Shown in pieces: positions 13,472 to 53,491 of a stretch of 64,000 bases of DNA. The stretch spans positions 138,259 to 202,258 of the forward strand of contig CP129477.1 in assembly GCA_030583825.1 (NCBI GenBank), written 5' to 3'. A program made the position numbers and the translations under genes. Origin of the DNA: Candidatus Dojkabacteria bacterium. GTDB lineage: Bacteria; Patescibacteriota; Dojkabacteria; GCA-002793355. How positions within the stretch are numbered: the stretch's first letter is position 1; each line of letters begins with the position of its first letter. The notes under the pieces were generated by a model that saw nothing but the letters and a program-made list of their open reading frames with translations, made no database searches and had not been told where the DNA came from.

Positions 13472-13927
13472 ATGGGCACTCTTTTCTATACATTTCGAAC
13501 ATTTCCGACTCTTCTATTGAGTTCATTGGAGTTACAAAACGCGCCATTTATTTTCGGCAATCTAAAACAGGATCTGATAAATTTTCAAGATTCTTTTACC
13601 AAACATCGTCCGACACAGATTATTGGATTTGCAAAAGGTAGCTATTCACGTTTCGAGACAATAACAATTAATCATTTTGGTAGAAATAAACGCGTATTAG
13701 CAACAGACATAGAATCATATGTTTTACATTTCCCTCACAATGGATTCGGAAATATAAAACTTTCTAGGCGCCCAACTAATACATTTTGTAATTGGACAAT
13801 GTTTCAAATTGCTCACATTGCCAAGCCACTCAATATACCAGTACAATTCATTCATATTGCCCCTAAAGATATTTTAGACCTAAAAGACTTTTTAAAGTCA
13901 CAATATAATGAAAGTGTTGAATACTAA
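13472..13927 (+). CDS. Possible pyroglutamyl-peptidase I (C15)-like protein that is diverged or short
   Basis: TNTFCNWTMF resembles the catalytic-Cys motif and VQFIHIAP resembles the GFIHVP His motif. The N-terminal region is atypical and the protein is only 151 aa. Confidence 0.3.
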   Translation: MGTLFYTFRTFPTLLLSSLELQNAPFIFGNLKQDLINFQDSFTKHRPTQIIGFAKGSYSRFETITINHFGRNKRVLATDIESYVLHFPHNGFGNIKLSRRPTNTFCNWTMFQIAHIAKPLNIPVQFIHIAPKDILDLKDFLKSQYNESVEY

Positions 13928-24974: not shown

Positions 24975-26489
24975 TTACTGTGTGCTTTTAATCCTCTTTG
25001 CAATCTCTCCGAAGTTTAAAACCTGACCGCTAGTACTTCTTTGTGGGATATTATTCTGTGGCGTAGCATTCTGCTGCTGTGGAGTACTCTGAGTCGCAGG
25101 TGCTGTAGTCTGAGGAGCTTTTTGTTCCTGAGGCTGTGGCTTACTCGCTACTGGAGGAGTTGCGACAGTTTGAGGCTTTGGTGCAACCTGTGATTGTGAC
25201 TGTACTTGTGGTTGATTTACCGGAGTTTGTGGTTTTACACTTGGCTGAGGTTGAGGTCTATTTGGTTGTGGTTGCTGTGGCTGTGTTTGAGTACTTGAAG
25301 GTCGTGCTGAAGATGTTGACTGCGATTGTTGTGATGATGTCGGAGCCTTTGCAGTTTCTGATGTAAATCCAAGAGTCTGCGAGAATGTTTTCATTTCCTG
25401 AGTTAAGACCAATCCTACGCCTTTATTTCCAAAAACAACAAGTTTAAGCTTTGCCATATTCTGGCGTGCATCTTCTGACTCGCCTGCTGCATATACCAAT
25501 GAATAGTTGTTATCGTATTCAATAGAAATAAGTGCTTGCGAAACCTGAAGTGCTTTTACCATATCTTCAGGAGTAACAATCAAATCACTCAGCTTTATGC
25601 CTAATGTTTCGACTTCTGACTTCGAAAGTGATGCATATGCAATTCGCTTTGGTGCATTTACTTTCATTTTTTCTGTTAACTTTTTGCTAAATGCGGCGTA
25701 TTCAGGTTTTTTATTCAACGATGCCTGTGAAATTGCACCGACATTAACTCCTGATTTGAATAATTCTCCTAATACGCGGAATACTTCTGCCATAAATGCT
25801 GTCTCTTTGACTTGCAATGCGTTTACTCGAAGCAAGAATGTTGCGACTGCGTCTTTTGCTTTGTCATTCATTTTGCCAAGTCGGGAAATTCCAAGAACAA
25901 TTTTTGCAACTGGTATAAGTTCTGTTTCTACAGGATAGGTCTGTGCGACTGCAACAACTTTCTGGAAGTTTTCTACTCCATTTGAACCGAATGCAATGTG
26001 TTGTGCTTCCATGACCGATGATTTGGCTTCTCCAAGAAGCTTTTCAAGCTCGTCTGCCGACTGAATACCAAGAGTAATGAATACATCGTGCTGTGCTCCA
26101 AATGTCTTAAATTGAACCTGATTAAAGTCAAACTTTGCCGTACCAGGAACAATATACAAGAAGAACTTTCCTCCGGAAATATCGTAGCTTACGCTTGATA
26201 CTGAACCATCTCCACACGGAATTTCAATGACATGCTTAAGTGTTTGGACTGTATCGTTATATTCAACGCCAAAGTGGGTAAAAACGTGCTTTAACCATCC
26301 TTCGGGAGATCCCTGAGAAATAAGTGTTACTTTTCGTCCTGAATCTTTCTGCATATGCGCAATAATTGAGGTGACTAATGCATACTCTTCGGGAACGAGT
26401 TTGTTAACAACAATTAATGGATGCTGGGCACTTTGTAATAAAGAAATAACCTTTGTAATATCTGTATTCATGGAGATATTATAGGACAA
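24975..26489 (-). CDS. Hypothetical protein, a possibly degenerate DHH/DHHA1 (NrnA-like) paralog, with a C-terminal Pro/Gln/Ser/Thr-rich disordered tail of about 130 aa
   Basis: It occupies the infB-(rbfA/truB)-rpsO slot, where a DHH phosphoesterase sits in Mycobacterium (Rv2837c, next to rbfA and infB; recalled from memory). The N-terminal stretch NKLVPEEYALVTSIIAHMQKDSGRKVTLI aligns positionally with the NrnA motif HxNPDGDAIGSSLAL...GKxVT, but the catalytic Asp and His residues are absent. The tail ends in SGQVLNFGEIAKRIKSTQ. Confidence 0.3.
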   Translation of the reverse strand: MSYNISMNTDITKVISLLQSAQHPLIVVNKLVPEEYALVTSIIAHMQKDSGRKVTLISQGSPEGWLKHVFTHFGVEYNDTVQTLKHVIEIPCGDGSVSSVSYDISGGKFFLYIVPGTAKFDFNQVQFKTFGAQHDVFITLGIQSADELEKLLGEAKSSVMEAQHIAFGSNGVENFQKVVAVAQTYPVETELIPVAKIVLGISRLGKMNDKAKDAVATFLLRVNALQVKETAFMAEVFRVLGELFKSGVNVGAISQASLNKKPEYAAFSKKLTEKMKVNAPKRIAYASLSKSEVETLGIKLSDLIVTPEDMVKALQVSQALISIEYDNNYSLVYAAGESEDARQNMAKLKLVVFGNKGVGLVLTQEMKTFSQTLGFTSETAKAPTSSQQSQSTSSARPSSTQTQPQQPQPNRPQPQPSVKPQTPVNQPQVQSQSQVAPKPQTVATPPVASKPQPQEQKAPQTTAPATQSTPQQQNATPQNNIPQRSTSGQVLNFGEIAKRIKSTQ

Positions 26490-28037
26490 TTATCGAGTTT
26501 TTGCAACCACTTCGATCGTGTCACCTTCTTTAACATCTGCTCCTTTTCCGAGGTTTAAACCACACTCGGAACCCTTTTTGACTTCGTTTCGCTCATCTTT
26601 CAACACACGAAGTGAGGTAATACCATATTCTCCAACGAGAACTCCTTCACGCATAACACGGCAGATTCCGCTTTTTCTAATTTCACCATCGGTAACAACA
26701 CCACCTGCAACAACTGTTCCATCTGAAAGTGTAAATACCTGCTTAACACGAAGTGTTCCAATTTGTGTCATTTTATCTCCGCCTTGTCCCATGACATTTG
26801 AAATATGCTCAGAGAGATAGTCGTAAAGATGATATACAACATCAAATGTTTTAAATTCGAGATGATTTTGTCGAGCATAGTCCTGAACATTATTTGGAGC
26901 TTTTACTCTAAATCCTAAAAGAACTGCTTTAAATGTTAATGCCATGTCAACATCGTTTGTTGTAATACCGCCGACTCCGGAAGAAACTACTTTCACTGCT
27001 AATCGCTCATTATTGAATTTCTCGAATGTTGGAAGAATTGACTGCAAGGATGCTTTTACGTCTGTTCGAATAATGACTGGAACAACAAATTCATGGCCAT
27101 CATTAAAAATACTGTCCAAAAGATCTTCTTCTGATGAATGCTCATCAACTAAGTCTTTATGCTGATTTTTCTTTAATTCTTTTTCAAATGCTGCACCGTC
27201 TGCTGTTTTTACAATATCAATGCCTGATGCGGGAAGTTCCTGAAGTCCGGTCATAATAAATGCCTGACCTGCCACAACTTCTTTAATCGGCTTTTTTAGT
27301 GAATCAAAGAGCATGCCGGCTTTTTCTTTTTGCTCGCCAATATATAAAGAATCGCCCTTAGCCAATGTACCATATTTTAATACTGCAAAGATTGTTTTGC
27401 CCAATGCTTTATCAACGCTACTATCAAGAACAACTCCATAAGAAGTAATTGCCTCTGCTGCATCGCGATACTGTTCCATAAGTTTTAGCTTTTCATTTTC
27501 TGGGTCAAGGAGGTTTTCAACTTCTGTCAAAAGAAAAACCAGATCCAAAAGCTTGTCGAGACCTTCTTTTGTATGAGCTGAAACTTCAACAAATGGAATA
27601 TCTCCACCATACCCTTCGAGATAGATTCCGTTTGCAACAAGATCGTTGATTACTTTTTGAGTATTTGCTTCTGGTTTATCTATTTTTGTCAGCACGACAA
27701 TAAATTTCACGCCTTGCTGCTGGATAATCTGAAATGACTCCAATGTTTGAGGCTTGATACTTTCGTCTGCTGCAACAATAAGAAGCGCGATGTCTGCAAC
27801 TTTACCACCATTGACGCGCATTAAGCTAAAAACTTCGTGGCCTGGAGTGTCAACAAATGTCACTCTTTTCTCTTTCCAGAGAATATCTGAAATATAGATA
27901 TTTTGAGTAATACCACCAGATTCGCCACTTTGGACGCTTGTATTGCGTACAGCGTCTAGTAAAGAGGTTTTTCCGTGGTCAACATGGCCAAGTACGACAA
28001 CTATTGGAGGCCTCTGTTGGGATGTTTTATTGCTCAT
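26490..28037 (-). CDS. infB: Translation initiation factor IF-2, short form that starts at the G domain
   Basis: The G1 motif GHVDHGKTSLLD and the downstream IF-2 domains are present. The product is 515 aa. Confidence 0.85.
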   Translation of the reverse strand: MSNKTSQQRPPIVVVLGHVDHGKTSLLDAVRNTSVQSGESGGITQNIYISDILWKEKRVTFVDTPGHEVFSLMRVNGGKVADIALLIVAADESIKPQTLESFQIIQQQGVKFIVVLTKIDKPEANTQKVINDLVANGIYLEGYGGDIPFVEVSAHTKEGLDKLLDLVFLLTEVENLLDPENEKLKLMEQYRDAAEAITSYGVVLDSSVDKALGKTIFAVLKYGTLAKGDSLYIGEQKEKAGMLFDSLKKPIKEVVAGQAFIMTGLQELPASGIDIVKTADGAAFEKELKKNQHKDLVDEHSSEEDLLDSIFNDGHEFVVPVIIRTDVKASLQSILPTFEKFNNERLAVKVVSSGVGGITTNDVDMALTFKAVLLGFRVKAPNNVQDYARQNHLEFKTFDVVYHLYDYLSEHISNVMGQGGDKMTQIGTLRVKQVFTLSDGTVVAGGVVTDGEIRKSGICRVMREGVLVGEYGITSLRVLKDERNEVKKGSECGLNLGKGADVKEGDTIEVVAKTR

Positions 28038-29234: not shown

Positions 29235-30356
29235 CTATGAGAGTTCACTTAATTTCTTCCACAGTTTTTTCTGCTCTGCCGAGAGTTTCTTTGGAATATC
29301 AAGCTTTACTGTTAAAAGAATGTCCCCTTTTTGTGTGGAATTAAGCTTATATGCTCCCTGCCCTTTAACCTTTAGAATTTCTCCATGTTGAATACCTGCA
29401 GGAAAGGAAATAGTTTTATCGCCATAGGGAGTTTTAATATCAATCTTTCCTCCAAGCACCGCATCCGTTACTGGAATTTTTGCTTCGCCGTATAACGTTT
29501 CTTTCTTTCGCTCGTACGTTTCGAACTTTGGAACAGTTAATACAACAAAAAGATCTCCTGCTTTTCCATTATTGCGCCCGACATTGCCACCGCCTACAAA
29601 TTTAAGAGTAAGACCATCATACGATCCTTTTGGAACTTTTAAGGTGACAGAGACAGCATCTGGAATACGACCTGTTGTTTTACATGCTGAACATGGGTTT
29701 TCTGCTCGTTTTCCTGAGCCTCCACAATTTGGACATTGCGTTGCATACATAAAGTTCCCAAGAAATGAGGCATTTCTCATATGAACATATCCACTTCCCT
29801 GACAATTTTCACATGTGACCATTTTTCCAGTTGTACTACCTACTCCATTACATGTTTTACAACCAACATAACGCTCATAGGTAAGAGTTACTTCGCCCCC
29901 GTCGTTTGCTGTTTCAAAGGGAACTTTAAGCTCTACTTCGCGATCTTCTCCAATTTCCTGGCCTCGACGAGAACGTCGGCCAGCCATTTGCTCTTCAAAT
30001 AAATTGCCAAATAGTCCACCAAAGAGGTCAGACATATCTCCCATATCAAAAGTTGCTCCGCCGCCGAAGTCATTAAATCCTCCAAATGGAGCGCCTCCAG
30101 GCTGGCCACCTCCTGATCGCGCATATTGTTCGTATCCTGCTTTGCCATAGGTGTCGTACATATTTTTCTTTTGTGGATCTGACAAGACTTCGTAAGCTTC
30201 TCCCACTTCTTTGAATTTTGCCTCTGCATCTGGGCTTTTGTTCCTATCAGGATGATATTTTGCCGCGAGTTTGCGGTATGCGCGCTTTATTTCATCTGCA
30301 CTTGCTGAACGAGACACGTTCAAAATATCATAATAATCGTTATTATTCTTTGACAT
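29235..30356 (-). CDS. dnaJ: Chaperone DnaJ
   Basis: The J-domain contains HPDRN. A Gly-rich linker is followed by four CxxCxGxG zinc-finger repeats. Confidence 0.85.
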
Positions 30357-30383
30357 AGCTATAGTAAGTTCCTATAATAGGTT

Positions 30384-31172
30384 ATGCTCCCGATTTTACC
30401 AAAGACTGCCCTTTCTTCACAAGAAAAGAGGGTAAAATATACGGAGAAGTCAAAACAAAGCAATACTCAAAAATTGAGTGTTCTTAAAGGTCTCTCCAAG
30501 TTCGTTATTATAGGTGGATTATTATTGTTGGTTACTCAATTATTACCACTTGGAGTTTCATATGCACAATCATTTATTGTACACGCATATAATGGAGAAA
30601 CATATATTCCCGTCAGCCAGAATTTCTTACAAAAAATGATTTCGGTGCAATATATTGATCCGGGACAGGCATATTTTCAATCAGTTGTAGACCATCAAAG
30701 GGTACAAGATATCACGATTGATACGAGCTATACACAGCCAATGAATATAACCGTCGGCACGGCAGAAATTAATAATATCCTTTTAACTCCGAATGTTCCC
30801 GGCTCTGACAAATCTCTGTACGAAGCAGCACTTAAAAAAGGAGTTGCCCACTTAAAAGGAACCCCCTTGCCGGGCAGCGGGGGTACATCCATAATTTATG
30901 GACACAGCGGACTTTCGGGACTTCTTGTGAGCCCACATAATCCACAGATTATTTTTTCACGATTAGATGCAGCAAATGTTGGAGATACTGTTACAATACA
31001 CAGAGACGGTAAAGAGTTGCAATATCTTGTGACATCTAAGAAAATCATAGAGCCGACCGATGTCACATTTATTACAGATACGAGTCACAAAGAAAAAATT
31101 GTGCTCATTACCTGTTGGCCACTCGGCATCGGCACAAAAAGATTAGTTTTAATTGGTGAAAAAATACAATGA
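30384..31172 (+). CDS. Sortase-family transpeptidase with an N-terminal membrane anchor
   Basis: The TLxTC-type catalytic motif is present as VLITCWP, and an upstream His region reads IIYGHSGLSG. A TM helix is present. The start codon lies 27 bp from the divergent dnaJ start, so it may be mis-set. Confidence 0.7.
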   Translation: MLPILPKTALSSQEKRVKYTEKSKQSNTQKLSVLKGLSKFVIIGGLLLLVTQLLPLGVSYAQSFIVHAYNGETYIPVSQNFLQKMISVQYIDPGQAYFQSVVDHQRVQDITIDTSYTQPMNITVGTAEINNILLTPNVPGSDKSLYEAALKKGVAHLKGTPLPGSGGTSIIYGHSGLSGLLVSPHNPQIIFSRLDAANVGDTVTIHRDGKELQYLVTSKKIIEPTDVTFITDTSHKEKIVLITCWPLGIGTKRLVLIGEKIQ

Positions 31173-32488
31173 ATAGAAATATTCTGATCCTCGTTCTGGT
31201 TATTATCATTATTATTGCAGTACTCGTTGGTATTGTTATATTTCTGCCACGAGGCGATAGTTCCGGACAGAAAGTCGTTATTAACTATTGGGGATTATGG
31301 GATCCTCCAGAAGTATACGAAGAGCTTTTCCAAGAATATGAAAATAACAATCCAAATGTTGATGTTGTCTATGCTCAGCGACGATTTGGAAACGATCAGT
31401 CAAATAGCTACAAAGGCCAATACCAGGCATCTGTAGATGAGCGTCTCGCAAACGGGGAAGTTGACATTGTGAGAGTACACCAAAGCTGGATTCCACGAAT
31501 CTTACCGCAGCTTTCTGCAGCACCGCAAAGCATTTTTAATGATCAGGAAGTAAAAGCAAATTACTATCCTGCAGTCAGCGAAGCAATTGTGACAACTCGA
31601 GGAGAAGTCTACGGAGCACCAATGATTATTGATGGATTGGTACTGTTTTATAATAAGGATTTATTCACAAAGGCAGGCGTTACAAATCCTCCTACAGATT
31701 GGGATGATGTCGTTGAAGTCAGCAAAAAGCTTACAGTCACTGTAAACGGAGAAATTCAGCAGGCAGGTATTAATCTTGGATCAGCAAGCAACTCTTTGCA
31801 CGCATTTGAAATTGTCCTTCTGATGATGACACAGGCAGATGTTGATATGGTATCTCTTGATGCAACAAATAAAATTCAGGCATCATTTGCAACACAGAAA
31901 GCTGCTGACGCAGTGAATATGTATTTTGACTTTGCTCGTGTCCATAAAGTATGGTCGAGCCGATTACCAAATGATTTACAGTTATTTACTGAAGGCCGAC
32001 TTGCAATGATGATTGCGCCAAGTTGGAGAGCAAACGACATTATTAATGCAAATGCAAATCTTAATTTTGATGTTGCAGCCGTTCCTATTTTGCCAGGTGC
32101 AAACCGAGATACTCCTCAATATCTTGCATCATATTGGGTTGATGTCGTCTCTAAAAAATCACGAAACCCCGCAGAAGCATGGAAGTTGCTTGCATGGTTA
32201 TCACAGCCTGCACAAATGAAACGAATTTATCAGAAGCAGGCTTCATTAAGAGCCTTTGGATCACCCTATCCTCGAACGGAAATGGCAAGTGAATTAACCA
32301 ATACGCCGATTTCAAAAGTAATTTTGCAAATGGCTCCGGGTATGAAATCATGGCCACTCTATGATTATGGAAACTGGGAAGTTATTTTTAACTCAGAGCT
32401 TGCAAAACTTGAGACATCGACAGCAGCAGTAAATGCTGGTAATCTTGAGAGTGCACAGTCACAATTGAACCAGTTAATTTTTAAATAG
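31169..32488 (+). CDS. Membrane-anchored extracellular solute-binding-protein-like protein (SBP family 1-like)
   Basis: An N-terminal TM helix is followed by [21 protein letters not shown], a typical SBP_bac_1 start. It overlaps the sortase stop in an ATGA arrangement. No ABC permease or ATPase genes are adjacent. Confidence 0.55.
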
Positions 32489-32495
32489 AGCTTTT

Positions 32496-35400
32496 GTGCC
32501 CAGGAAGCGTTTACAACAATTTGTTCTTTTCTTTTCCTTCCTTTTGTTGTTGATTTTACCTACAGCGATTGTCGGGTACGATAACTTCGGTGATTTACGA
32601 AACATTGCATTTGGAAAACGATTTTTACAGGAAGAAGGACTCTATACAGTGTCAACAGAAAGCTCGACAAATATCACAAAAGATTCTCCCTTTGTTGTTA
32701 CGGCAGAAATATCTTCTCCTGCAGCATTACCACTTAATTATTTTGCGGCTGTTGTTGAATTTGACTCTACAAAGGTAAGTATTTCTGATATTGAACTTGA
32801 AGAAAACAGTGGATTGAAAGTGATTCAGGCAGAAGGATTGTATGTCATTATGCCAAATGGCAACCATGTTCCATCGTCGGTTGAGGATTTGCTTCCTGAA
32901 GGATGTTATGAAGCAAAGACCTGTGACTTCGTTTCGTTTCAAAAGAACACAGCCCGAATGAGAATTAACGGCTTACTCAAAGACGAATTAACTGAGCAAC
33001 AGCGACCGATAAAAATTACATTTGTTGCAGCGAGCGAGTCATCCTCTTCATTTTTTTGGAATAGAAAAACTGTCTCTCCCGAACTAAAGCTTGGCTCTTT
33101 TGTTCGGAATGCAGTACCAGAGTTTCTTACTGAACCGACACTGTATATTACAGAAAACGAGCGTTACTCTTACAAAATCTCCACTCGCGACTTTGATAAT
33201 GACCTTGTTTCCCTATCACTCTCATGCCCACCAAACATTGTCTGTTCTCAGGAAGTTAGCTCACCTGAAGGCATGCAGATTATAGGAAATGAGCTTGTTT
33301 GGGAAACTCCACGAGCTCGACAGGATAAATACATTATTACTATCTATGCGGATGATGGAAAAAGCGTTTCTACACAAACATTTGCGTTAAAAGTCCTTCG
33401 TGCAGAAGAAAGGAATTTTTCATGCACATTCACAATTGGATACGCAGTAAAGGTTGTTGATTACAAAAAAGTAACTCCGCTCATTTTAGATGCGCAGCTT
33501 TCGTCGGGAATTTCAAAAGTAGATGTGTCATTAGCTAAAGAAAATACTGTTGAAACAACATTTTCTTACACATTCGAGAATAATCCACAGTCAATAATTC
33601 TCGATGAGAATGCAAACCCACCTCTCGCATACAAATTCAACGAAGGAACATATACAGGTGAAGCAATCATTACTGATCCTTCGGGCAATGTGTATAGTTG
33701 TGAGCTGGTTAATAGCTATGGTGATAACAGTATTAACATCTCTCCTGTAACGGCAGCAGTTTCAGATTTTTTAGATAGCGTTGTCCAATCGGTGCGCGCC
33801 GCATCTGCTATTATCGTTGGCGATAACAGACCTCCAACATTTACAACGAATCCATACACGCAATCACAACCGGGAGTTTCTTTTGTTGTTAACACTTCTT
33901 ATAACTATGTACTGACTGCGCAGGATCCAGATGGAGACCCTCTTTCATATACAAGAGTAGCTGCGCCTTCATGGGCAAATGTATCAGTGCTGCAAAATTC
34001 GGGAGGAACTTTATCACTGCAAATAACTGGTGTTCCTACAACTGGAGGCAGCAATTTATTTGCATTCACAATTAACGATGGTAACGGTAGTTTTATTACA
34101 CAAACTTGGGTGATCAATGTTGATTATCCTGACAACGATATTCCAAGAGTCACTATTAAACAGCCGACAACCGGTATTACGCGAACACAAGGCCAGACTT
34201 TTTTTCTTGAATGGGATGTTGAAGATCGGAATCAAATCGTTAAATTCGAACTGTACTATACTAAACAGTTAGGCGGGCCATTAACAACATTTAACAATAA
34301 TATTGGCTTTCGCACGAGATCAATGACTCTTGGTACAGGCAATATTCCCCCTGGAGATTATTACTTTGTTCTTAAAGCGTACGATAACAGAAATCCAGCA
34401 GGTATTGGACAGGGAGTTACTCAACTTGTTCGTATTCTTCCACGACCGCAACCAACCCAAACAGTTGCACCAACACCGACTCCCACACAAACAACAGCTC
34501 CAACAAGTACACCATCCGTAACTCCTTCAGGAACGGTGACGCCAACTCCCACCCCTACGCCTACAGAATCAGTAACTCCAACACCGACTGTGTCAGAAAC
34601 ACCTACTCCGACCCCAACCCCAACAGAAGAGATTCCCACCCCTACACCGGAATTGGTCTTTATTAGTGTTGTCAAACCTATTGAAGGGGGGAAGCTTGCT
34701 GCTGAAGAATTAGAAATTGTCGCACGTATAAATGCATCAAATGAGGCGACATTGCAATGGAGAAACGTTACTGTATTAATTAACGATCTCGACGTTTCTT
34801 CAAAAGTATCTCGCTCAAGCGAAGAAGGAAAAACAATTTCGTTAGCGTATCGCCCTGCAAATTTGCTACCGAAAGGAAACCACACAATTACTATTCGAGC
34901 TACCGATAGCGAAGGAAATGTAGGAGAAAAGAAAGTCTCGTTCAGCATTACAGAACTCATGATTACTGAAGATGTCGAAGATACGACAAACTTTCTTGGG
35001 TTTAAAATTCCAACAGCTATTCGAAATATTTTCCTGATAGGACTTGTTATTCTCGTACTGGCACTCTTACTTCCAATATTGCTGTACATGACCTGGAGTC
35101 GAGGCAATAAGAAAACAACAGTTCAGACGACAGTAACACCGCCAGCACCAAAACCGGCAAGCCCAGCAGTATTCCCCACGACTCAATCAGGAATGCCAAA
35201 AGTGACAAATACAACACCGCAACCATCAGCACCTGTTATGCCATCTGCACCGCCGGCTCCAGCGCCTCAACCACAGCGTGTATCGTCGTATTCTCCAGAA
35301 AATGCAGGCCTTACGACAGCATCCAGTAATGCACCTCAGTCAGTACAACCTGCACAGGTAACACAGAGTGCTGCTCCTAAGCCATCACCGTTGCCGGCAA

Positions 35401-35969
35401 GTACACCGAGTTCGTCACAGATTCCTCGGTCAGCAAATATTCCAAACTTTATTCAACCGAAAGCAGGCGCACCGAGCACTCTGCAAACTTCCCAGCCTAG
35501 TGCATCAGTACCAACGTCTCAGGCCAAAGTGAATGCTCCCGCAGCAGCTCCACAACCTCAACCACGTCCTGTACAACCGACACAGTCATATGCTCCACCG
35601 CAACAACCGAGTGTTGCGCCTCAAGCTCCGTCAATGACTCCAGCTGCTCCTCAAAAGCCAGCACCAACGAACATACAAAAACCGGATATGATTCCTTCTA
35701 AGAATATTCCTACATCGCAAACGACACCAACACAAAGGCCTGCAACGGTAACACCAATTCAGAAACCAGGAACTGTAACACCGGTGGGACAAAAAGTACC
35801 GACAACAGTACCTGTTCAAAGTACTCCCGTAGCAAAAGCTCCAATCGCACAACCACCACAGAAACCACAAGGGCCTGCAACTGTTCCTCAGAATATTCCT
35901 GCATCAGGAGATAAGCCTTTGACGCAAAACCAGAAACTCCCACCAAAGTCTCCAGTGACGATAACATAG
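32496..35969 (+). CDS. Giant surface protein (1157 aa) with dystroglycan-type cadherin-like/putative Ig domains, a Pro-Thr linker, a TM helix and a 300-aa Pro/Gln/Ala-rich C-terminal tail
   Basis: It has a signal peptide. The cadherin-like pattern appears in PPTFTTNPY...[25 protein letters not shown]...[18 protein letters not shown]-rich linker reads [20 protein letters not shown].... A TM helix lies near residue 840 ([22 protein letters not shown]). No LPXTG or LAXTG sorting motif was found. Confidence 0.6.
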
Positions 35970-35983
35970 TGCTATAATACCCC

Positions 35984-37927
35984 ATGAAGAACACTCAATG
36001 GACGAGCTCTCAGTTAAAACAGAGCTTTTTAGATTTTTGGAAATCAAAAGGACATACGATTATTCGCAATGCCAGTTTGCTTCCTGAAAATGATCCGTCT
36101 GCTCTCTTTACGTCAGCAGGAATGCATCCACTCGTTTCGTATTTAATGGGAACACCACACGAGTCAGGAAATACAAAGCTTGCTAATATTCAACGATGCT
36201 TGCGTACAGGAGATATTGAAGAAGTCGGAGTTACCCGACGCCACCTCACTTTTTTTGAAATGGCCGGAAACTGGTCGCTTAATGATTACTTTAAAAAAGA
36301 AGCGATCAATTGGTCATTTGAATATCTCACATCAAAAGAATGGCTTGGACTTGATCCTGCACGATTATACGCAACAGTCTTCAGAGGCGACGATGATGCT
36401 TCAAAAGACGAAGACAGCATTCAAATATGGAAAGATGTTTTTAACACAGTAGGTATTGGTGCAAATGTCGTAGATTTACCTGAAGATTCTGACACTATCG
36501 AGCATATTTCATGCTATTCAAAAAAAGAAAACTGGTGGGGCCCTGTATCAAAAACTGGCCCATGTGGCCCCGACACTGAAATCTTTTATGACACTGGAGC
36601 ACAGCATGACCCCGCATTTGGAAAGTACTGCCATCCAAACTGCGATTGCGGCCGATTCATCGAAATCTGGAACAATGTATTCATGGAATTCTTTAAAAAC
36701 GATGCAGGTCAGTACGAAAAAGCTCCTTTAAAGAACGTTGACACAGGGCTTGGAATTGAAAGAGTCATCCTTATTTTGCAATATAAAGATAATGACGGAA
36801 ACGTAGACAAGCGATTGACTATCTTTTCTACCGATTTATTTGAATCACTCTCAAAAATCCTTGTTAATTATTTCTTCGATAATACACTCACTCAGCCATT
36901 AGATATTTACCTAAGCGAAAAGAATATTCCAGAACCCGATCAGATTGCCATAAAAGTTATTATTGAACATACACGAGCAGCAGCAATGGTTCTCTCGGAA
37001 CATATTGAGCCGTCCAATAAAGACAGAGGATATGTATTACGACGTTTGCTCCGCAGAGCGATGCGAAATATGATGAAACTTGCTGATACATATGCTCCAA
37101 CCAAAAAACAAAAACTCGATGAATTATTGGGAACTCTTTTAGAAGATATTATTACCCAATATGGAAATGAATATCCGGAGTTAACAAAAGAAAAAGAAGC
37201 TATTCTTTCGCTTGCGCATACAGAATTTAAAAAGTTTGAGCAGGCATTGCAGCGTGGAAGCACCCTCTTTATGAATACTATTCCAGAAAAATTGAATGGA
37301 GAACTTGCATTCGATTTATACCAAAGTTATGGTTTTCCTTTTGAGCTCACGCAGGAAATGGCAGCAGAGCGAGGCATTACAATTTCAACAGTTGATTTTG
37401 AAAAAGCAAAACAGCTTCATCAGGAAGTTTCCCGCAAAGGAATGGAAAAGAAATTTGCCGGAGGGTTGGGAGATAAATCTCCACAGTCAGTAATGTATCA
37501 CACGCTCACTCATTTGCTTCATAAGTCGCTTCGAGACATCTTTGGCCAGGACATTCACCAGCAAGGAAGTAATATCACACCGGAACGATTACGCTTTGAT
37601 ATTAACATAAAAGAAAGGCTTACCGACGAGCAAATCAAAGAAGTTGAAAACAGAATTAACGGTTGGATTGCAGAAAAACTTCCTGTGACCCGTGATGAAG
37701 TTTCAGCAGAGGAAGCAGATCGCCGTGGAGCTTTAGCATTCTTTAGTGAAAAATACGGAAGCACAGTTACGGTATATACAATTGGATCTCCGGATTCTCC
37801 TGTTTCAATTGAACGTTGCATGGGGCCACATGTTACAAATACCGGAGATATTCAGGGAACATTCAAAATCACAAAGCAAGAAAAAATCGGCGCCAACCTT
37901 CTCCGAATTAAAGGTCAACTTGTATAA
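35984..37927 (+). CDS. alaS: Alanine--tRNA ligase, short form lacking the C-Ala domain
   Basis: The N-terminal class II core reads FTSAGMHPLV...RCLRTGDIEEVG...HLTFFEMAGNWS. The editing-domain motif HTLTHLLH is present. The product is 647 aa. Confidence 0.8.
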   Translation: MKNTQWTSSQLKQSFLDFWKSKGHTIIRNASLLPENDPSALFTSAGMHPLVSYLMGTPHESGNTKLANIQRCLRTGDIEEVGVTRRHLTFFEMAGNWSLNDYFKKEAINWSFEYLTSKEWLGLDPARLYATVFRGDDDASKDEDSIQIWKDVFNTVGIGANVVDLPEDSDTIEHISCYSKKENWWGPVSKTGPCGPDTEIFYDTGAQHDPAFGKYCHPNCDCGRFIEIWNNVFMEFFKNDAGQYEKAPLKNVDTGLGIERVILILQYKDNDGNVDKRLTIFSTDLFESLSKILVNYFFDNTLTQPLDIYLSEKNIPEPDQIAIKVIIEHTRAAAMVLSEHIEPSNKDRGYVLRRLLRRAMRNMMKLADTYAPTKKQKLDELLGTLLEDIITQYGNEYPELTKEKEAILSLAHTEFKKFEQALQRGSTLFMNTIPEKLNGELAFDLYQSYGFPFELTQEMAAERGITISTVDFEKAKQLHQEVSRKGMEKKFAGGLGDKSPQSVMYHTLTHLLHKSLRDIFGQDIHQQGSNITPERLRFDINIKERLTDEQIKEVENRINGWIAEKLPVTRDEVSAEEADRRGALAFFSEKYGSTVTVYTIGSPDSPVSIERCMGPHVTNTGDIQGTFKITKQEKIGANLLRIKGQLV

Positions 37928-37933
37928 ACAGCT

Positions 37934-38344
37934 ATGACTGTACTCGGCATTGATTACGGCTCTAAAAAGATAGGACTTGCATTGCTCAGCACGGAAACAG
38001 AAATGATATTTCCGCTGAAAGCTGTGTTGAATACGAGAGCGATTCTTGCTGACATTGTGAAAATCTGTGACGAATATCGAATAGAAACTGTCGTTATTGG
38101 ACTTCCCTCTTCTGGAAGCATCGTTAAAAAGATACATAGATTTGCTACGAATTTACATCAAATAAAGAATGTAGCAATAGAATTTGTTTCAGAAGATCTA
38201 AGTTCCCGCTACGCTCATTCTATGCTATCATCCCTAAGAGACAATAATGCCGTTTCAATAAAAGGGTTCGGCAAAAAAGATACTTTTAGTGCCACAGTTA
38301 TTTTGGAAGAATGGCAGACAAAAATAAAATCTAAACACACATAA
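37934..38344 (+). CDS. ruvX: Putative pre-16S rRNA nuclease / Holliday junction resolvase-like YqgF
   Basis: The product begins MTVLGIDYGSKKIGLAL and is 136 aa. The alaS-yqgF-mltG gene order is conserved elsewhere. Confidence 0.75.
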   Translation: MTVLGIDYGSKKIGLALLSTETEMIFPLKAVLNTRAILADIVKICDEYRIETVVIGLPSSGSIVKKIHRFATNLHQIKNVAIEFVSEDLSSRYAHSMLSSLRDNNAVSIKGFGKKDTFSATVILEEWQTKIKSKHT

Positions 38345-39477
38345 TGGCCAGTTACTCAACTGAAAAAATACGCCCACAAAAGTCTGGAAAAAAAGGCCCA
38401 ATTATCCTATTAGGATTATTAATTCTCATTCTTGCACTTGCTGGAGGAACAGTATTTGCACTCGACTCGTTCAATATTGTGAAAATTCAGAGCTATTCAT
38501 GTTACTGGGATTATGGTCACGCAACAGAAAAACTTACGCCCGAAGGAATGACTGAGCAAGACAAAGTGCCGCTTCTTATTGAAAGTGGCGATACAGTTGT
38601 AAGAATCGGACAAAAGTTACAAGAAAAAGGATTGGTCTCTTCTCCTGAATATTTTGCCTGCTATGTAAAAAAGACAAGCGCTGGAGAAAAAATCCAGGCA
38701 GGCTATTTTGAATTACCAGTACCAATTAGCGTTGAACAGCTTGTTCCATTATTGCAAACAGCGAAAGTTCCATCAATACGCATTACTATTAAAGAAGGAC
38801 TTCGACTTGATGAAATTGCCGATATTGTTGACGCCGCACTATCAGAATCAAACCCGATCAAGGCTTTTAATAAAGAAGAATTTCTTGCACTTACGGTAGA
38901 TACGACGGTTATAGAAAATTTTGACTTTATGAAAGGAAAATCTTCACTTGAAGGTATTTTGTTCCCTGATACTTACGATATTCCCAAAAATGCAGATTCG
39001 AAAGCAGTCATTGATTTATTAACTTCAACCTTCCAACGTAAAGTGCTTAATCAGCTTGGTGGAACACTTTCGGTACAGACTCTTTCTACATACGATGTTA
39101 TTACTCTCGCCTCTATTATCGAAAAAGAAGCAGGAAGCAATTTTGAAGAGAAACAAATGGTTGCAGACATTCTACTGCGTCGGTTACGAGATGGGTGGTT
39201 ACTGCAAGTTGATGCAACTTTTATGTATGAACACAAAGATTGGAAGCACGTTATTACAGTACAAGATAAAGCAACAAACACTCCATACAATACATATCTT
39301 CGAAAAGGATTACCTCCAACGCCAATTAATAATCCTGGACTTGATAGTATTCGAGCAGCATTAACTCCAAAAAGTAACCAATATTGGTATTACCTTCATG
39401 GAACAGACGGACAAATTCGCTACGGAGTTACTTACGATGACCATCTTCGTAATATTTCAACTTACCTAAGGCCATAA
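38344..39477 (+). CDS. mltG: Endolytic murein transglycosylase MltG (YceG-like)
   Basis: An N-terminal TM helix is followed by the YceG-like domain containing PYNTYLRKGLPPTPINNPG. Confidence 0.75.
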   Translation: MASYSTEKIRPQKSGKKGPIILLGLLILILALAGGTVFALDSFNIVKIQSYSCYWDYGHATEKLTPEGMTEQDKVPLLIESGDTVVRIGQKLQEKGLVSSPEYFACYVKKTSAGEKIQAGYFELPVPISVEQLVPLLQTAKVPSIRITIKEGLRLDEIADIVDAALSESNPIKAFNKEEFLALTVDTTVIENFDFMKGKSSLEGILFPDTYDIPKNADSKAVIDLLTSTFQRKVLNQLGGTLSVQTLSTYDVITLASIIEKEAGSNFEEKQMVADILLRRLRDGWLLQVDATFMYEHKDWKHVITVQDKATNTPYNTYLRKGLPPTPINNPGLDSIRAALTPKSNQYWYYLHGTDGQIRYGVTYDDHLRNISTYLRP

Positions 39478-39479
39478 CC

Positions 39480-40976
39480 ATGACACGATCAGTAACAGGA
39501 GTAAAAAAGAGCCTCTTCCCTACGGAGAAGTCTGCGGAAGATATAAAAAAAGAGGCGGCAATAAACAGTAAGCCTGAACAAGCAGCTGTGTCTGCTGCAA
39601 AGAAAGGTACACCAAAGAGTCCGACAGGACGCAAAAATTGGATTAGTATTGGATTGCGGTTTCTCATTATTACAATTACTTTTGGGGTATTTGTAGTTGC
39701 CATCCCTACACAGTTCAGAGACTTAGCAGAAGTAACACAGGCATTTGTAAAATCAACAAACTTTACAATCGAATCAAACAGCTCTTTAGATATCGGAAAT
39801 GTGAAAAAGAATCCTGAGCTTAGAAAAGACGCAAATGGAAAAACAAATGTTATGCTTGTAGGTGTTGACACTCGATATGTCGTTGCACGTGGAGGTGGTA
39901 CACTTCGTAATACCGACTCTCTTATGGTTGCAACATATGATCATAAAACTCACCGTGTCGGCCTTATTTCTTTCCCTCGAGATATTATTGCAAACTTTCC
40001 CAATACTCCATCATATATGAAAATTAATGCAATCTACGCAACAGGAGAATCAAGAAGCAAAGGATCAGGGTTAGAATCAATCAAGCAAACACTCGAAAAC
40101 ATGTCTGGACTAAAAATTCAGTACTATGCAATGGTGGATTTAAAAGGCTTCATGACAGTCATTGATCTCCTTGGTGGCATTGATGTATACGTCGAGCGAT
40201 CATTTACAGACTACCAGTATCCCACAGATAATTATCGCTGGAGAACTGTTTCCTTTACCCAAGGATGGGCACATATGAATGGAGATACTGCACTCGCATT
40301 TTCGCGGTCACGACATTCTCAACAAGCTGGTGAAGGTTCAGATTTTGCCCGTGCTCGAAGACAACAAAAAGTTATTCAAGGAGTTATTGATCAGGCACTA
40401 AAGCAAGAAACATTACAAAATCCAAAGAAAATCTTTGAAATTCTAAACGCTATTGCGGGGAGTATTCAAGTAAACCAATTGACACCTGAAGATGTCGAAG
40501 CAGCTTTGGCAATTCTCACAGCAAAAGGAAAACCAGAAATTTTCAATGTTGTTCTCGATCCAACAGTTGCAAACAAAAAGCTTTTACAAGTTGGAGGATA
40601 TGGCACCGGCTATACAATTACAACGATTGGGGGAGTAAAAAATACCGGCCCAATGAGGCAATTTCTTACTGATTTCTCAAACGAGCCAACAATTGTAAAT
40701 GACGTTACTATCCCTGTTTACAATGGAAAATCAGGATCATTTACAAGCAAATACCGTAACCTTACCGGAAGATTCTTCTACATGAAACTCTATAATGCAG
40801 GCACAACAGAAGAATACCAAGGAGACACAGTATTTAACCATGGCGGTGCTCAATACGAACGAGTTAGTAAATTTATTGCTGCAACTATGGGGATGACGTA
40901 TCAGGAAGTCACAGACGAATCTATTCGTGCTCCACGACCAAACGGTGTTCCAGTTGTTATTGTTCTTGGCAAATAA
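39480..40976 (+). CDS. LytR-CpsA-Psr (LCP) family cell-envelope phosphotransferase
   Basis: A TM anchor is followed by the LCP core MLVGVDTR...SFPRD...INAIYATGE...YYAMVDLKGF. Confidence 0.75.
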   Translation: MTRSVTGVKKSLFPTEKSAEDIKKEAAINSKPEQAAVSAAKKGTPKSPTGRKNWISIGLRFLIITITFGVFVVAIPTQFRDLAEVTQAFVKSTNFTIESNSSLDIGNVKKNPELRKDANGKTNVMLVGVDTRYVVARGGGTLRNTDSLMVATYDHKTHRVGLISFPRDIIANFPNTPSYMKINAIYATGESRSKGSGLESIKQTLENMSGLKIQYYAMVDLKGFMTVIDLLGGIDVYVERSFTDYQYPTDNYRWRTVSFTQGWAHMNGDTALAFSRSRHSQQAGEGSDFARARRQQKVIQGVIDQALKQETLQNPKKIFEILNAIAGSIQVNQLTPEDVEAALAILTAKGKPEIFNVVLDPTVANKKLLQVGGYGTGYTITTIGGVKNTGPMRQFLTDFSNEPTIVNDVTIPVYNGKSGSFTSKYRNLTGRFFYMKLYNAGTTEEYQGDTVFNHGGAQYERVSKFIAATMGMTYQEVTDESIRAPRPNGVPVVIVLGK

Positions 40977-44321: not shown

Positions 44322-44388
44322 TCATTGTAAATCCACAGTACTAGGCAAATTTTGCATTCAGCTAATCAATTTAATGATATAATCCGTT

Positions 44389-46191
44389 ATGAGTGAATCC
44401 CAAAATACCGTGCGAAACTTCTGTATCATTGCACATATTGACCACGGAAAAACAACTTTGACTGACAGAATTCTTGAATTAACATCTCAAAGTCATCACA
44501 AAGACCTACGCGAAAAAGACCGCTTAACCGATATTCTCGAAATTGAGCAAGAGAGAGGTATTACAATCAAACTGCAGCCGGCAACAATGCAATGGAAAGG
44601 TCATACCTTGAACCTTATTGATACGCCAGGACATGTTGACTTCACTTACGAAGTATCACGATCTCTTAAAGCATGCGAAGGAGCATTACTGCTTATTGAT
44701 GTTACTCAGGGAATCCAAGCACAGACAATTTCAAACTTATTGCTTGCTATGGAGGCTGATCTTGTTATCATTCCAGTTATTAACAAGGTTGACCTTGATC
44801 CACAGTTGGTGCCTGAACGATTAAAAGAAATTAAAGATATTCTTGGATTCAAAGAAGATGAAGTAATTCTTGCATCAGGAAAAACAGGCCTCGGTATAGA
44901 TACAATTCTGGACACAGTTATTGAAAAAGTTCCTGCACCAGAAATTCCAAACAAGACTTCTCTTTCAGCATTGATATTCGACTCTTTCTACGATGAACAC
45001 AAAGGAATTGTTGCTGCAATTCGAGTCATTGACGGAAAAATCACTAATGCAAGTCAGTTGCATTTATTAAATACAACGACAGAATTCACTCCAAAAGAGA
45101 TTGGAATCTTTACACCAGAGCTTGTTCCTTCACAAGAATTAGCTGCAGGATCGGTTGGTTACATTGCAACAGGTATTAAAGATATCCGTAAAGTAGGCAT
45201 TGGCGATACTATTTCAGACAAAAAAGATGCCGACGCAATTCCAGGATATCAACGTCCGGTTCCCAAAGTATTTGCATCTATTTTCCCTGAAAACCAGGAA
45301 GATTACATTGATTTAAAAGAAAGCATTGGAAAACTCTCACTTAATGATGCTGCACTACAGATTTCAGACGACTACTCTCCACTGCTTGGACAAGGATTCC
45401 GCGTAGGATTTCTTGGACTTCTTCATCTTGAGATTACAAAAGAACGATTGGAGCGTGAGTTTGCAGTCAGAACAGTAGTCACAATTCCGAGTGTAGAATA
45501 TAAAGCAGTCTTAAAGACAGGAGAGCAAATTTCAGTCAAGTCGGCATATGACCTTCCAAATATTAGCACTATAGAATCGTTGTCAGAGCCATTTATTAAA
45601 GGAGAAATTCTTACACCATCGTCGCATATTAGCAGTCTGTACGAAACAGTTATTCGCTTTAGAGGAACAATTCTCAATACACGCGACTTATACTCGTCAC
45701 AATTCTCTAGTTATAACTATGTTGTGCTCGATATTGAAATGCCGTTTGCAGAGCTTCTGAAAGGCTTTTTTAACACATTGAAGAGTGTCAGCCATGGATT
45801 TGCATCATTCCAGTATGGAGACATTTCTTATAGAGAAACAAAGCTTATTCGAATTGATATTTTGGTTAACAAAGAAATTGTTCCGCCATTATCGTTTCTT
45901 GATATTCCAGAACGTGCTGTTGAACGGGCATCGAGTATGCTGAACACGCTAAAGAAAACTATTCCTCCGCATGTATTTTCTATTCCGCTACAAGCAACTG
46001 TTGGAGGGAAAATTATTGCCCGTGAAGATGTCTCAGCCTTCCGCAAAAATGTTACTGGCAAGCTATACGGCGGCGATATCACGCGAAAGAAAAAGCTGCT
46101 GGAAAATCAGAAAAAGAAGAAAAAAGAAATGCAGATTGCTGGAAAGGTACGTATTCCTTCAGAGACATTCATAAAAATCATTAATAGCTAG
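44389..46191 (+). CDS. lepA: Elongation factor 4 (LepA)
   Basis: The product begins VRNFCIIAHIDHGKTTLTDR, is 600 aa, and has a LepA-type C-terminus. Confidence 0.9.
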   Translation: MSESQNTVRNFCIIAHIDHGKTTLTDRILELTSQSHHKDLREKDRLTDILEIEQERGITIKLQPATMQWKGHTLNLIDTPGHVDFTYEVSRSLKACEGALLLIDVTQGIQAQTISNLLLAMEADLVIIPVINKVDLDPQLVPERLKEIKDILGFKEDEVILASGKTGLGIDTILDTVIEKVPAPEIPNKTSLSALIFDSFYDEHKGIVAAIRVIDGKITNASQLHLLNTTTEFTPKEIGIFTPELVPSQELAAGSVGYIATGIKDIRKVGIGDTISDKKDADAIPGYQRPVPKVFASIFPENQEDYIDLKESIGKLSLNDAALQISDDYSPLLGQGFRVGFLGLLHLEITKERLEREFAVRTVVTIPSVEYKAVLKTGEQISVKSAYDLPNISTIESLSEPFIKGEILTPSSHISSLYETVIRFRGTILNTRDLYSSQFSSYNYVVLDIEMPFAELLKGFFNTLKSVSHGFASFQYGDISYRETKLIRIDILVNKEIVPPLSFLDIPERAVERASSMLNTLKKTIPPHVFSIPLQATVGGKIIAREDVSAFRKNVTGKLYGGDITRKKKLLENQKKKKKEMQIAGKVRIPSETFIKIINS

Positions 46192-47860: not shown

Positions 47861-48495
47861 TGGCGAGCAATCCAACAGACCCACGAAACGCGCCAATTGT
47901 GGCGTCAACTCAAGAATACCTTGAAATTGCTGATGTCATTAGTGATTTATTGTTAACCAAAAATGGCACTGTCTGTCTCATTATTCGTACATCATCTGTA
48001 AACTTTGATCTTCTTTCAGAAGTTGAACAGGATATTAAAATTCAATCTTTTGCATCGCTCGTAAACTCGCTTGACTACGATATGCAGATTTTGATTGAAA
48101 CTCAAAAAGTAAATATCAGCTCTTATGTAGAATTTCTCGATCAAATGGATACTCCTGACCTTTCTCCTGGATTGAAAAGACAATTTACCATTTATAAAGA
48201 GTTTATTCGAAACCTTATCACTAAAAAAGAAATTCTCGATAAGAAGTTTATGATTGTTATTCCATTCCGATCAACAACGCCAGTAAGCCCATTGTCTCCA
48301 CTTGAATACAAACATAAGATCCTTGAAACAGCGATTAACTTTTTATACCCTAAAAAGTACCACATGTTGAAAATGCTCAAAGGAATGGGACTTGATGGCT
48401 ACCAGATGACAAATAAAGAAATTGTTAAATACTTTTTTGATGTGTTTAACCCGGACAATCAAATCCAGATTGAAGGAATTAATATTCGGTTATAA
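47860..48495 (+). CDS. virB4: VirB4/PrgJ-like T4SS ATPase, N-terminal fragment, ending at an in-frame TAA
   Basis: QEYLEIADVISDLLLTKNGTVCLIIRTSSVNFDLLSEVEQDIKIQSFASLVNSL follows the conserved N-terminal pattern of Gram-positive VirB4 proteins (IPY..V.DG.I.T..G.F.K.Y.L.DVNF..AS.EEQE.IF..Y..FLNS). It is in the same reading frame as the next ORF. Confidence 0.65.
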   Translation: MASNPTDPRNAPIVASTQEYLEIADVISDLLLTKNGTVCLIIRTSSVNFDLLSEVEQDIKIQSFASLVNSLDYDMQILIETQKVNISSYVEFLDQMDTPDLSPGLKRQFTIYKEFIRNLITKKEILDKKFMIVIPFRSTTPVSPLSPLEYKHKILETAINFLYPKKYHMLKMLKGMGLDGYQMTNKEIVKYFFDVFNPDNQIQIEGINIRL

Positions 48496-48501
48496 TTATT
48501 T

Positions 48502-53352: not shown

Positions 53353-53491
53353 AAATTAAAAGCTTAAATATTCTTAGGTAAGTTTAAATCAAACGACAAT
53401 CTCGGTAAACTTAACTCGAATTAGGAATGCAGGTCAAACCAAGTCCGAACTTTGTCCACCCCACACACTAAATAATCAGGTATAATACACA

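Follow-up and report, generated by a model that had tools for sequence, protein, structure and literature searches.

Genes for solute-binding proteins (SBPs) of the CUT1 type normally adjoin their own permease genes, as in MalEFG-type systems. SBP-dependent transmembrane receptors are also known (ChvE-VirA, LuxP-LuxQ, and TorT-TorS), in which the binding protein is encoded beside a bitopic protein with a large outside domain and a cytoplasmic part. Here, we describe a locus of three plus-strand genes (30384-35969) in a 64-kb window from a Candidatus Dojkabacteria bacterium (the whole stretch of 64,000 nucleotides analyzed; contig CP129477.1 of assembly GCA_030583825.1, positions 138,259 to 202,258), which encode a sortase, an SBP, and a large immunoglobulin (Ig)-chain protein and are hereafter called the trio. 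Our tentative reading is that the trio forms a lineage-specific surface module, in which the SBP, working with the Ig-chain protein, would serve as a glycan receptor that needs no permease, and the sortase, co-expressed with them, would act on substrates encoded elsewhere.

All three protein families are already known; the conserved three-gene combination, a family of transmembrane (TM)-tethered MalE-like proteins without an adjoining permease gene across the candidate phyla radiation (CPR), and an Ig-chain membrane protein family confined to Dojkabacteria are new. With the CUT1 SBPs (E. coli MalE, CpMnBP1 4r9f, and UgpB), the Dojkabacteria SBP shares a two-lobe fold (Foldseek E ~1e-22), a full-length profile alignment to CpMnBP1 (4.7e-30), and the acidic and Trp sugar-contact positions, whereas it has no adjoining permease or ATPase genes in 63 loci, probably has a TM helix as its tether in place of a lipobox or a cleaved signal peptide, and has homologues in sister lineages that add a long Pro-rich cytoplasmic extension. 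The sortase resembles class C sortases (8t28; Streptococcus/Corynebacterium SrtC) in its sortase fold, His-Cys-Arg triad, TLxTC-like LITCWP motif, and N-terminal membrane anchor, and its best PDB and NCBIfam sequence matches are class C enzymes. It departs from them in reaching only 79 bits against a class cut-off of 160, in carrying DPG..YF instead of DP[WFY], in lacking a C-terminal TM helix, and in the absence of LPXTG pilin genes from the window and from every related locus. A beads-on-a-string ectodomain, a Pro/Thr stalk, and a neighboring sortase are common to the large protein and to LPXTG Ig-repeat adhesins (MSCRAMM-type) and He_PIG/Big_9/cadherin-like proteins; however, the large protein has no sorting signal (pentapeptide, C-terminal hydrophobic stretch, and short basic tail) and is type-I-like with a cytoplasmic tail of ~290 amino acids (aa). 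The gene arrangement also recalls that of ChvE-VirA, LuxP-LuxQ, and TorT-TorS, in that a binding protein is encoded beside a bitopic protein, but the large protein lacks a kinase or other recognizable output domain, its cytoplasmic part being a disordered tail with a short conserved C-terminal peptide.

CPR bacteria (Patescibacteria) account for a large share of bacterial diversity and are apparently cell-attached, and functions have been assigned to few of their surface proteins. Méheust et al. (2019, PMC6744442) reported a sortase family from over half of the CPR genomes and from nearly all Microgenomates. A literature search on CPR sortase substrates, orphan Patescibacteria SBPs, and Dojkabacteria surface proteins returned nothing specific, neither on this locus nor on such substrates. 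The CPR 'Pam' pilus system is unrelated, as it relies on chaperone-usher-like assembly and has a different gene context (bioRxiv 10.64898/2026.03.03.709456).

Probable transcription unit

The open reading frame (ORF) calls and promoter elements of the locus are as follows.

30350..30378, plus strand: trio promoter, a perfect sigma-70 TTGACA-17 nt-TATAAT, with the -10 box ending 5 nt before the sortase ATG
30384-31172, plus strand: sortase gene, 262 aa
31169-32488, plus strand: SBP gene, 439 aa, ATG start
32496-35969, plus strand: large-protein gene, 1157 aa, GTG start
35970..35978, plus strand: extended -10 box TGcTATAAT of alaS, 5 nt ahead of the alaS ATG (35984)

These ORFs exactly match the three tightly packed genes reported in a preliminary description of the DNA. 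The sortase stop overlaps the SBP ATG by 4 nt, and the GTG start of the large protein lies 7 nt past the SBP stop. The trio promoter was the sole 12/12 consensus match within 29-43 kb (14 kb) of the window, and its position indicated that the trio mRNA is probably leaderless. The same layout (TTGACA...TATA(C/A)T-5 nt-ATG) also precedes the sortase gene in related loci (L001-L003, L009-L012, and L032). At the other end, the alaS -10 box is predicted to mark the next transcription unit and so to bound the trio; most Dojkabacteria loci likewise have, past the large gene, a (T/G)G-TATAAT box at a distance of 4-6 nt from the alaS ATG. No plus-strand terminator-like site was found between the trio genes or between the large gene and alaS. 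Junctions are also tight in the related Dojkabacteria loci, where the sortase and SBP genes overlap or are separated by less than ~20 nt in most cases and the SBP and large genes by 1-80 nt. Because a conserved leaderless promoter stands before the sortase gene and another before alaS, the trio looks like one transcription unit, and, as far as such sequence features tell, like a discrete, conserved, and translationally coupled operon.

The close spacing of the -10 box and the start codon was a recurring feature of the window. TATAAT occurs at -11 from the ATG in three other genes and at -12 in a fourth, and Shine-Dalgarno motifs are rare among the window genes. Start-proximal TATAAT sites were located at 30373-30386, 35973-35986, 44378-44391, 48491-48504, and 53481-53494, with further start-proximal boxes at 5252 (minus), 19434 (minus), 43217 (plus), 10590 (minus), and 13061 (plus); the variants TATAAT and TATACT/TAAAAT end 5-6 nt ahead of the start codon in many genes. 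Since start-proximal -10 boxes are frequent and Shine-Dalgarno motifs rare, leaderless mRNAs appear to be widely used in the source organism.

Conservation across Dojkabacteria

To follow the locus in relatives, one genome per species was scanned with an SBP profile (query, an alignment of 16 SBP sequences), which yielded 54 loci; ORFs were called in these and in eight further loci and labeled by jackhmmer profiles. A homologue of the large gene was present in 27 distinct loci, all from Dojkabacteria-type genomes, with SBP identity down to ~34%. The gene order sortase, SBP, large protein was retained in 26 of the 27, and the genes were strictly adjacent in 24, so that the trio is indeed kept as a unit in relatives, a point that the preliminary description had left to genome comparison. 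The departures were small: short ORFs are inserted between the SBP and large genes in L022 and L023, and in L047 the SBP and large genes are present and the sortase gene is not adjacent. Three further loci were cut by contig ends. In the nearest complete genome (Dojkabacteria CP129470.1), the SBP is 49% identical.

The solute-binding protein

The SBP matched the Pfam families SBP_bac_1 (3.9e-27) and SBP_bac_8 (3.6e-26), and its AlphaFold2 model, with a predicted local distance difference test (pLDDT) score of 92.7, displayed a two-lobe fold. The top Foldseek and PDB-sequence matches were oligosaccharide binders of CUT1 importers, including CpMnBP1 4r9f (mannooligosaccharides), a beta-1,2-glucooligosaccharide binder, MalE proteins, and UgpB. 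When the SBP was aligned by profile with E. coli MalE, its invariant D155 and W286 fell on E111 and W230, which contact the sugar in MalE, and further invariant Trp, Tyr, Asn, and Gln residues were observed over 30 diverse SBP homologues. The predicted structure supports, with confidence, an oligosaccharide-binder fold of the CUT1/MalE type; the structural check proposed in the preliminary description thereby gave a MalE/CUT1 fold with conserved sugar-contact positions. The N-terminus consists of Met-Asn-Arg-Asn followed by a 22-residue hydrophobic helix (residues 5-26 by hydropathy; model helix 3-24), leaving only ~4 cytoplasmic residues. Neither a lipobox nor any Cys was found within the N-terminal 35 residues. 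A hydrophobic N-terminal helix without a cysteine argues for a helix-tethered rather than a lipid-anchored protein, and the SBP is probably held in the membrane by this uncleaved-looking helix. Both halves of the earlier label, membrane-anchored and SBP-like, were borne out by the TM helix and the SBP_bac_1 match.

The absence of ABC transporter partners, first noted for the SBP of this window alone, extended to its relatives. A MalF/MalG-type permease or an ABC ATPase adjoined the SBP gene in none of 63 SBP loci spanning Dojkabacteria, WWE3, CPR3, Woesebacteria/Microgenomates, and Parcubacteria-type genomes, as judged by phmmer and jackhmmer searches with the permease half of P0089, by regular expressions for the EAA loop and for Walker/LSGGQ motifs, and by Pfam. 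Proteins with an EAA loop were likewise missing beside the SBP in all 63 loci. Two Walker/LSGGQ matches, neither adjoining an SBP gene, were set aside (an SMC protein in L008 and a 590-aa ORF ~4.5 kb upstream in L040), as were the two permease-sized multi-TM ORFs of the window, which Pfam identified as Rce1-like and EamA proteins.

In the non-Dojkabacteria loci, envelope and surface genes were prominent beside the SBP; the Pfam counts over 108 neighboring genes included VanW/PG_binding_4 (16), LeuRS (11), cytidylyltransferase (8), TsaD (7), Wzy_C (6), GatD-type amidotransferase (5), and T4SS_pilin (3), with MurT/GatD-type genes also seen; none of the 25 most frequent of the 63 neighbor families was a transporter component. 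WWE3, CPR3, and Parcubacteria-type genomes carry the SBP without the sortase or the large protein. In two Parcubacteria-type loci, small T4SS_pilin (PF18895) genes stand in arrays behind the orphan SBP homologue, with four copies in L007 (3053-5461) and seven in L008 (11410-11823 and 16369-18879), which is another tie of the SBP to surface proteins and not to transporters.

Pro-rich cytoplasmic extensions

An N-terminal extension of 65-144 aa before the TM anchor was present in 14 of the 32 non-Dojkabacteria SBP homologues, none of which has a large gene in its locus, and in none of the 31 Dojkabacteria-type SBP ORFs. The extension is cytoplasmic by topology and was Pro-rich in 13 of the 14 (P 17-32%, with S/T/A) and Ser/Asn-rich in the remaining one. 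The loci with an extended SBP are largely those in which the SBP is paired with VanW/PG_binding_4. Extended SBPs were found in L006, L036-L041, L044, L052, L054, L056, L057, L060, and L062 and among the proteins P0028, P0029, P0031, P0033, and P0036-P0040; taken together, their extensions span 50-144 aa and are of low complexity, mostly Pro-rich. They come from Microgenomates/Woesebacteria-type genomes, mostly in divergent pairing with VanW/PG_binding_4, and such extensions are unusual for an SBP.

In Dojkabacteria, by contrast, the SBP is almost without cytoplasmic residues, and the adjoining large protein bears a tail of similar composition. From this complementarity between a tail in cis and a tail in trans comes our main hint that the two proteins function as a unit, and it also suggests a role for the SBP beyond supplying a transporter. 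A bolder version, which we regard as very doubtful, would combine the SBP and the Ig-chain protein into a transmembrane receptor for glycans that works without a permease and is exclusive to CPR bacteria, with output through a disordered Pro-rich tail ending in NLPP[KE]SP that would be supplied in trans by the large protein in Dojkabacteria and in cis by the SBP extension in Microgenomates-type lineages. If true, this would be a new way of coupling the SBP fold to the cell interior, possibly for sensing or holding host cells.

The large Ig-chain protein

The AlphaFold2 model of the large protein, built from an alignment of 14 homologues (mean pLDDT, 75.7), together with hydropathy and composition, gave the following layout.

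Residues 9-27: N-terminal hydrophobic segment (hydropathy)
Residues 40-195: beta-sandwich domain 1 (AlphaFold2 model)
Residues 205-302: beta-sandwich domain 2 (AlphaFold2 model)
Residues 305-405: beta-sandwich domain 3 (AlphaFold2 model)
Residues 438-545: beta-sandwich domain 4 (AlphaFold2 model)
Residues 550-650: beta-sandwich domain 5 (AlphaFold2 model)
Residues 654-718 (34455..34649, plus strand): disordered Pro-Thr linker between domains 5 and 6 (T 40%, P 29%; pLDDT <50)
Residues 720-820: beta-sandwich domain 6 (AlphaFold2 model)
34986..35096, plus strand: 13-residue juxtamembrane motif and TM helix (TM residues ~843-867)
Residues ~868-1157 (35097..35966, plus strand): cytoplasmic tail of ~290 aa (composition, topology)

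Several dystroglycan-type cadherin-like domains had been proposed for this protein. Six beta-sandwich domains were modeled; at the level of Pfam families, only Big_9 at residues 444-540 passed its cut-off, and only just (26.6 versus 23.6 bits). Cadherin_5 (20.0 versus 26.5) and Big_13 (23.4 versus 27) stayed below theirs, and He_PIG was recorded for the homologues P0243 and P0255 only. Foldseek searches against the PDB retrieved generic multi-Ig chains (titin, DSCAM, and cadherins) and no functional clue. In an exhaustive HMMER search, about a dozen of 1.84 billion cluster representatives matched most of the N-terminal three-domain region; domain 2 (residues ~205-302) by itself corresponds to a repeat that is widespread in giant repeat proteins. 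The architecture is shared by 24 full-length homologues, each with a signal or anchor, an ectodomain of 480-810 aa, one TM helix, and a tail of 76-400 aa. The N-terminal hydrophobic segment may be an uncleaved anchor and not a signal peptide.

The Pro-Thr linker, the TM helix, and the long Pro-rich cytoplasmic tail of the preliminary description all held up. The tail is of low complexity and net basic (P 23%; T, A, and Q 12% each; 21 K+R versus 3 D+E) and terminates in a conserved 10-residue peptide (35937-35966), in which the C-terminal NLPP[KE]SP is kept in the nearest clade and missing in more distant Dojkabacteria. The sortase N-terminus shows a similar distribution, in that MLPILPK (30384-30404) is kept in the nearest clade and absent from more distant Dojkabacteria. 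The two peptides might be cytoplasmic docking peptides or might simply reflect shared ancestry. No DNA tandem repeats were found in the Pro-Thr linker or the tail. The Pro-rich part of the gene coincides with a GC peak of 0.456 (34001-36000) and a strong negative GC skew, and a Gly/Val-rich ORF of 228 aa on the opposite strand (34421-35107, minus) is a shadow of the Pro-Thr codons and no gene.

Strict and relaxed scans detected no LPXTG-like pentapeptide with a hydrophobic segment in the large protein, and no C-terminal sorting signal among the ORFs of the window or of ~0.9 Mb of related loci; the sole matches were multi-pass membrane proteins and shadow ORFs, which were dismissed. In the 24 full-length homologues, the stretch leading into the TM helix follows the consensus N-[IF]-F-G-[FY]-x-[IV]-P-K-R, in which Gly-Phe are the only near-invariant residues. 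This FGF/IPKR motif could be imagined as the cleavage site of a non-canonical sortase substrate, with the ectodomain transferred to peptidoglycan and the TM helix and tail left behind. It lies in a flexible, low-pLDDT linker immediately ahead of the TM helix, as sorting motifs usually do, an [ILV]-P-[KTS] tripeptide occurs at this place in many homologues, and L047, with its SBP and large genes and no adjacent sortase gene, lacks the FGF motif. However, only ~14 of the 24 homologues have Pro at the 'LP'-like position, and conservation does not extend to the Thr of LPXTG, so the motif was rejected as a sorting signal; L024 has the sortase and no FGF motif; and a conserved TM helix, followed by a tail of 76-400 aa with a conserved peptide at its C-terminus, is the reverse of what a disposable signal would show. 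Such processing is, in our estimation, most improbable. Pro860 and Tyr864 of the TM helix are invariant, and this conserved helix, the long tail, and the missing sorting signal in the 24 homologues make anchoring by the TM helix the better reading, in agreement with the earlier remark that no LPXTG or LAXTG motif is present and that the helix may hold the protein. The protein bears the sequence signature of a permanent bitopic membrane protein and not of a sortase substrate.

The sortase

The first gene product, described earlier as a membrane-anchored sortase, proved to be one by its PF04203 match (1.2e-20; 73.9 bits versus a cut-off of 26.6) and its single N-terminal TM helix. It is 100% identical to P0121, annotated 'sortase [Candidatus Dojkabacteria bacterium]', in agreement with an origin of the window in the CPR class Dojkabacteria (formerly WS6). 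The chain comprises a short cytoplasmic N-terminus, a TM helix at residues 40-60 (hydropathy), a spacer of ~85 aa, and a catalytic domain at residues ~145-261, directly past which it terminates. The catalytic His174, Cys244 (in LITCWP), and Arg253 are invariant among 23 orthologues (35-56% identity), as are D92 and P93 of the spacer motif DPG (residues 92-94). With this conservation, the enzyme looks catalytically intact and active, under purifying selection.

The closest solved relative was the class C sortase 8t28 (5.5e-17), with which the catalytic residues align. The generic NCBIfam model TIGR01076 was passed (75.3 against a cut-off of 39.35), whereas none of the class-specific NCBIfam sortase models was, the best being class C NF033745 (79.3 bits versus a cut-off of 160). 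Upstream of the sortase barrel, a Y-x-D-P-G-x-x-Y-F motif (G94 and F98) contains an Asp-Pro pair that recalls the class C lid without matching DP[W/F/Y]. Judged by its sequence, the sortase looks like a member of a class outside the current models.

Interpretation

In the reading that we tentatively prefer, a Dojkabacteria-specific, co-transcribed operon would produce three proteins, each fixed in the cytoplasmic membrane and with its folded domains on the outer side. The SBP would work without a dedicated ABC permease, as a lectin-like receptor for surface glycans, and would act jointly with the Ig-chain protein, which would project through the wall and reach the cytoplasm via its disordered tail. 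The sortase, probably a general wall-anchoring enzyme, would be co-expressed with both and act on substrates encoded elsewhere. The ligand of the SBP may be a host-cell glycan, implying attachment, or a polymer of the cell's own wall, implying envelope assembly, between which the data do not separate. Host attachment, first suggested for the locus along with a surface organelle, is plausible and would fit this reading; both ideas derive from the types of domain involved.

Several observations weigh against such a module. The flanking genes, dnaJ on one side and alaS-ruvX-yceG-LCP-holA on the other (LCP, LytR_cpsA_psr enzyme), are also syntenic, and the adjacency of the trio is not clearly better conserved than theirs; as the flanks are largely syntenic too, adjacency alone is no proof of functional coupling. 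Operons in genomes of ~1 Mb can join unrelated genes, and without a plus-strand terminator 3' of the large gene, transcription may run on into alaS. The genome could also encode ABC permeases at other sites, and P0089, a remote family member (27% identity), has a permease domain fused to it, which indicates that the SBP family descends from true transport SBPs. Disordered Pro-rich tails may also be general on CPR membrane proteins, which would weaken the argument from cis and trans tails. In an alternative account, three independent envelope genes would merely be neighbors, namely a housekeeping sortase, an SBP that takes up nutrients by docking on an unlinked ABC permease, and an unrelated surface protein, kept together by the strong general synteny of small CPR genomes. 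The MalE-like ligand residues and normal fold of the SBP, its permease-fused relative, its occurrence without the other two proteins in WWE3, CPR3, and Parcubacteria-type genomes, and the equal synteny of the flanking genes over the class are all in its favor. On the other hand, the usual CUT1 permease linkage is missing (0 of 63 loci) across at least five CPR lineages, the overlapping or near-abutting junctions and the single conserved promoter argue for co-expression, and an SBP devoted to transport would not need the 65-144-aa Pro-rich cytoplasmic extension of the sister lineages. We consider such independence unlikely, though by no means far-fetched.

The trio may instead belong to an envelope-assembly module, in which the SBP would recognize either the glycan of the cell's own wall or a precursor linked to lipid, the Ig-chain protein would span the wall as a scaffold, and the sortase, the LCP enzyme, and MltG would attach and trim wall components. 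YceG/MltG (38344-39477) and LytR_cpsA_psr (39480-40976) are encoded on the same strand 2.4-3.5 kb downstream of the trio, and in sister lineages the SBP gene either forms a divergent pair with VanW/PG_binding_4 (16 loci) or lies behind MurT/GatD and Wzy_C genes. GspA of Actinomyces, a single glycosylated surface protein on which both a sortase and an LCP enzyme act, offers a precedent. Yet the case is one of guilt by association. The alaS gene is preceded by a conserved promoter of its own, and many bacteria carry the alaS-ruvX-mltG cluster whether or not they have sortases; in addition, the nearest structural relatives of the SBP are binders of soluble oligosaccharides of plant or microbial origin. 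We find this assignment quite unlikely.

The surface module with a permease-independent glycan receptor stays our tentative working account. The locus offers a class-wide conserved operon, a MalE-like family that has seemingly departed from ABC transport, and a sortase family seeking substrates as leads. If the SBP is a glycan receptor acting with the Ig-chain protein, the trio would be a pointer to host recognition or wall organization; if permeases are encoded elsewhere in the genome, it would be an ordinary set of envelope genes.

Neighborhood and other features of the window

The trio lies among housekeeping and cell-envelope genes, without pilus or secretion genes. Upstream, dnaJ is encoded on the minus strand; downstream, alaS, ruvX, yceG/mltG, the LytR_cpsA_psr (LCP) gene, and holA follow on the plus strand. 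Further envelope-processing genes within the window were found ~16-18 kb upstream of the trio, encoding an Rce1-like CAAX-type intramembrane protease (12142-13056, plus; 8.4e-12) and a VanY D-Ala-D-Ala carboxypeptidase (13908-15344, plus; 6.8e-29). A VirB4/TraG-type type IV secretion ATPase (48502-50376, plus; P-loop_TraG, 2.3e-23; CagE_TrbE_VirB, 4.8e-07) is encoded elsewhere in the window and is followed by the gene of a glucose/sorbosone dehydrogenase (50357-51625).

Two translation proteins of the window are far below typical bacterial length, alanyl-tRNA synthetase (AlaRS; 35984-37927, plus) with only 647 aa and initiation factor 2 (IF2; 26490-28037, minus) with only 515 aa. AlaRS orthologues contain the catalytic tRNA-synt_2c and tRNA_SAD domains only, the C-terminal domain being absent, and the short AlaRS and IF2 are in line with CPR genome reduction. 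Between rpsO and infB, a 504-aa ORF (24975-26489, minus) has no Pfam match. Unannotated ORFs of 431-527 aa occupy the equivalent rpsO-infB position in L001, L003, and L005, and the 504-aa ORF is a conserved unknown within the translation-gene cluster.

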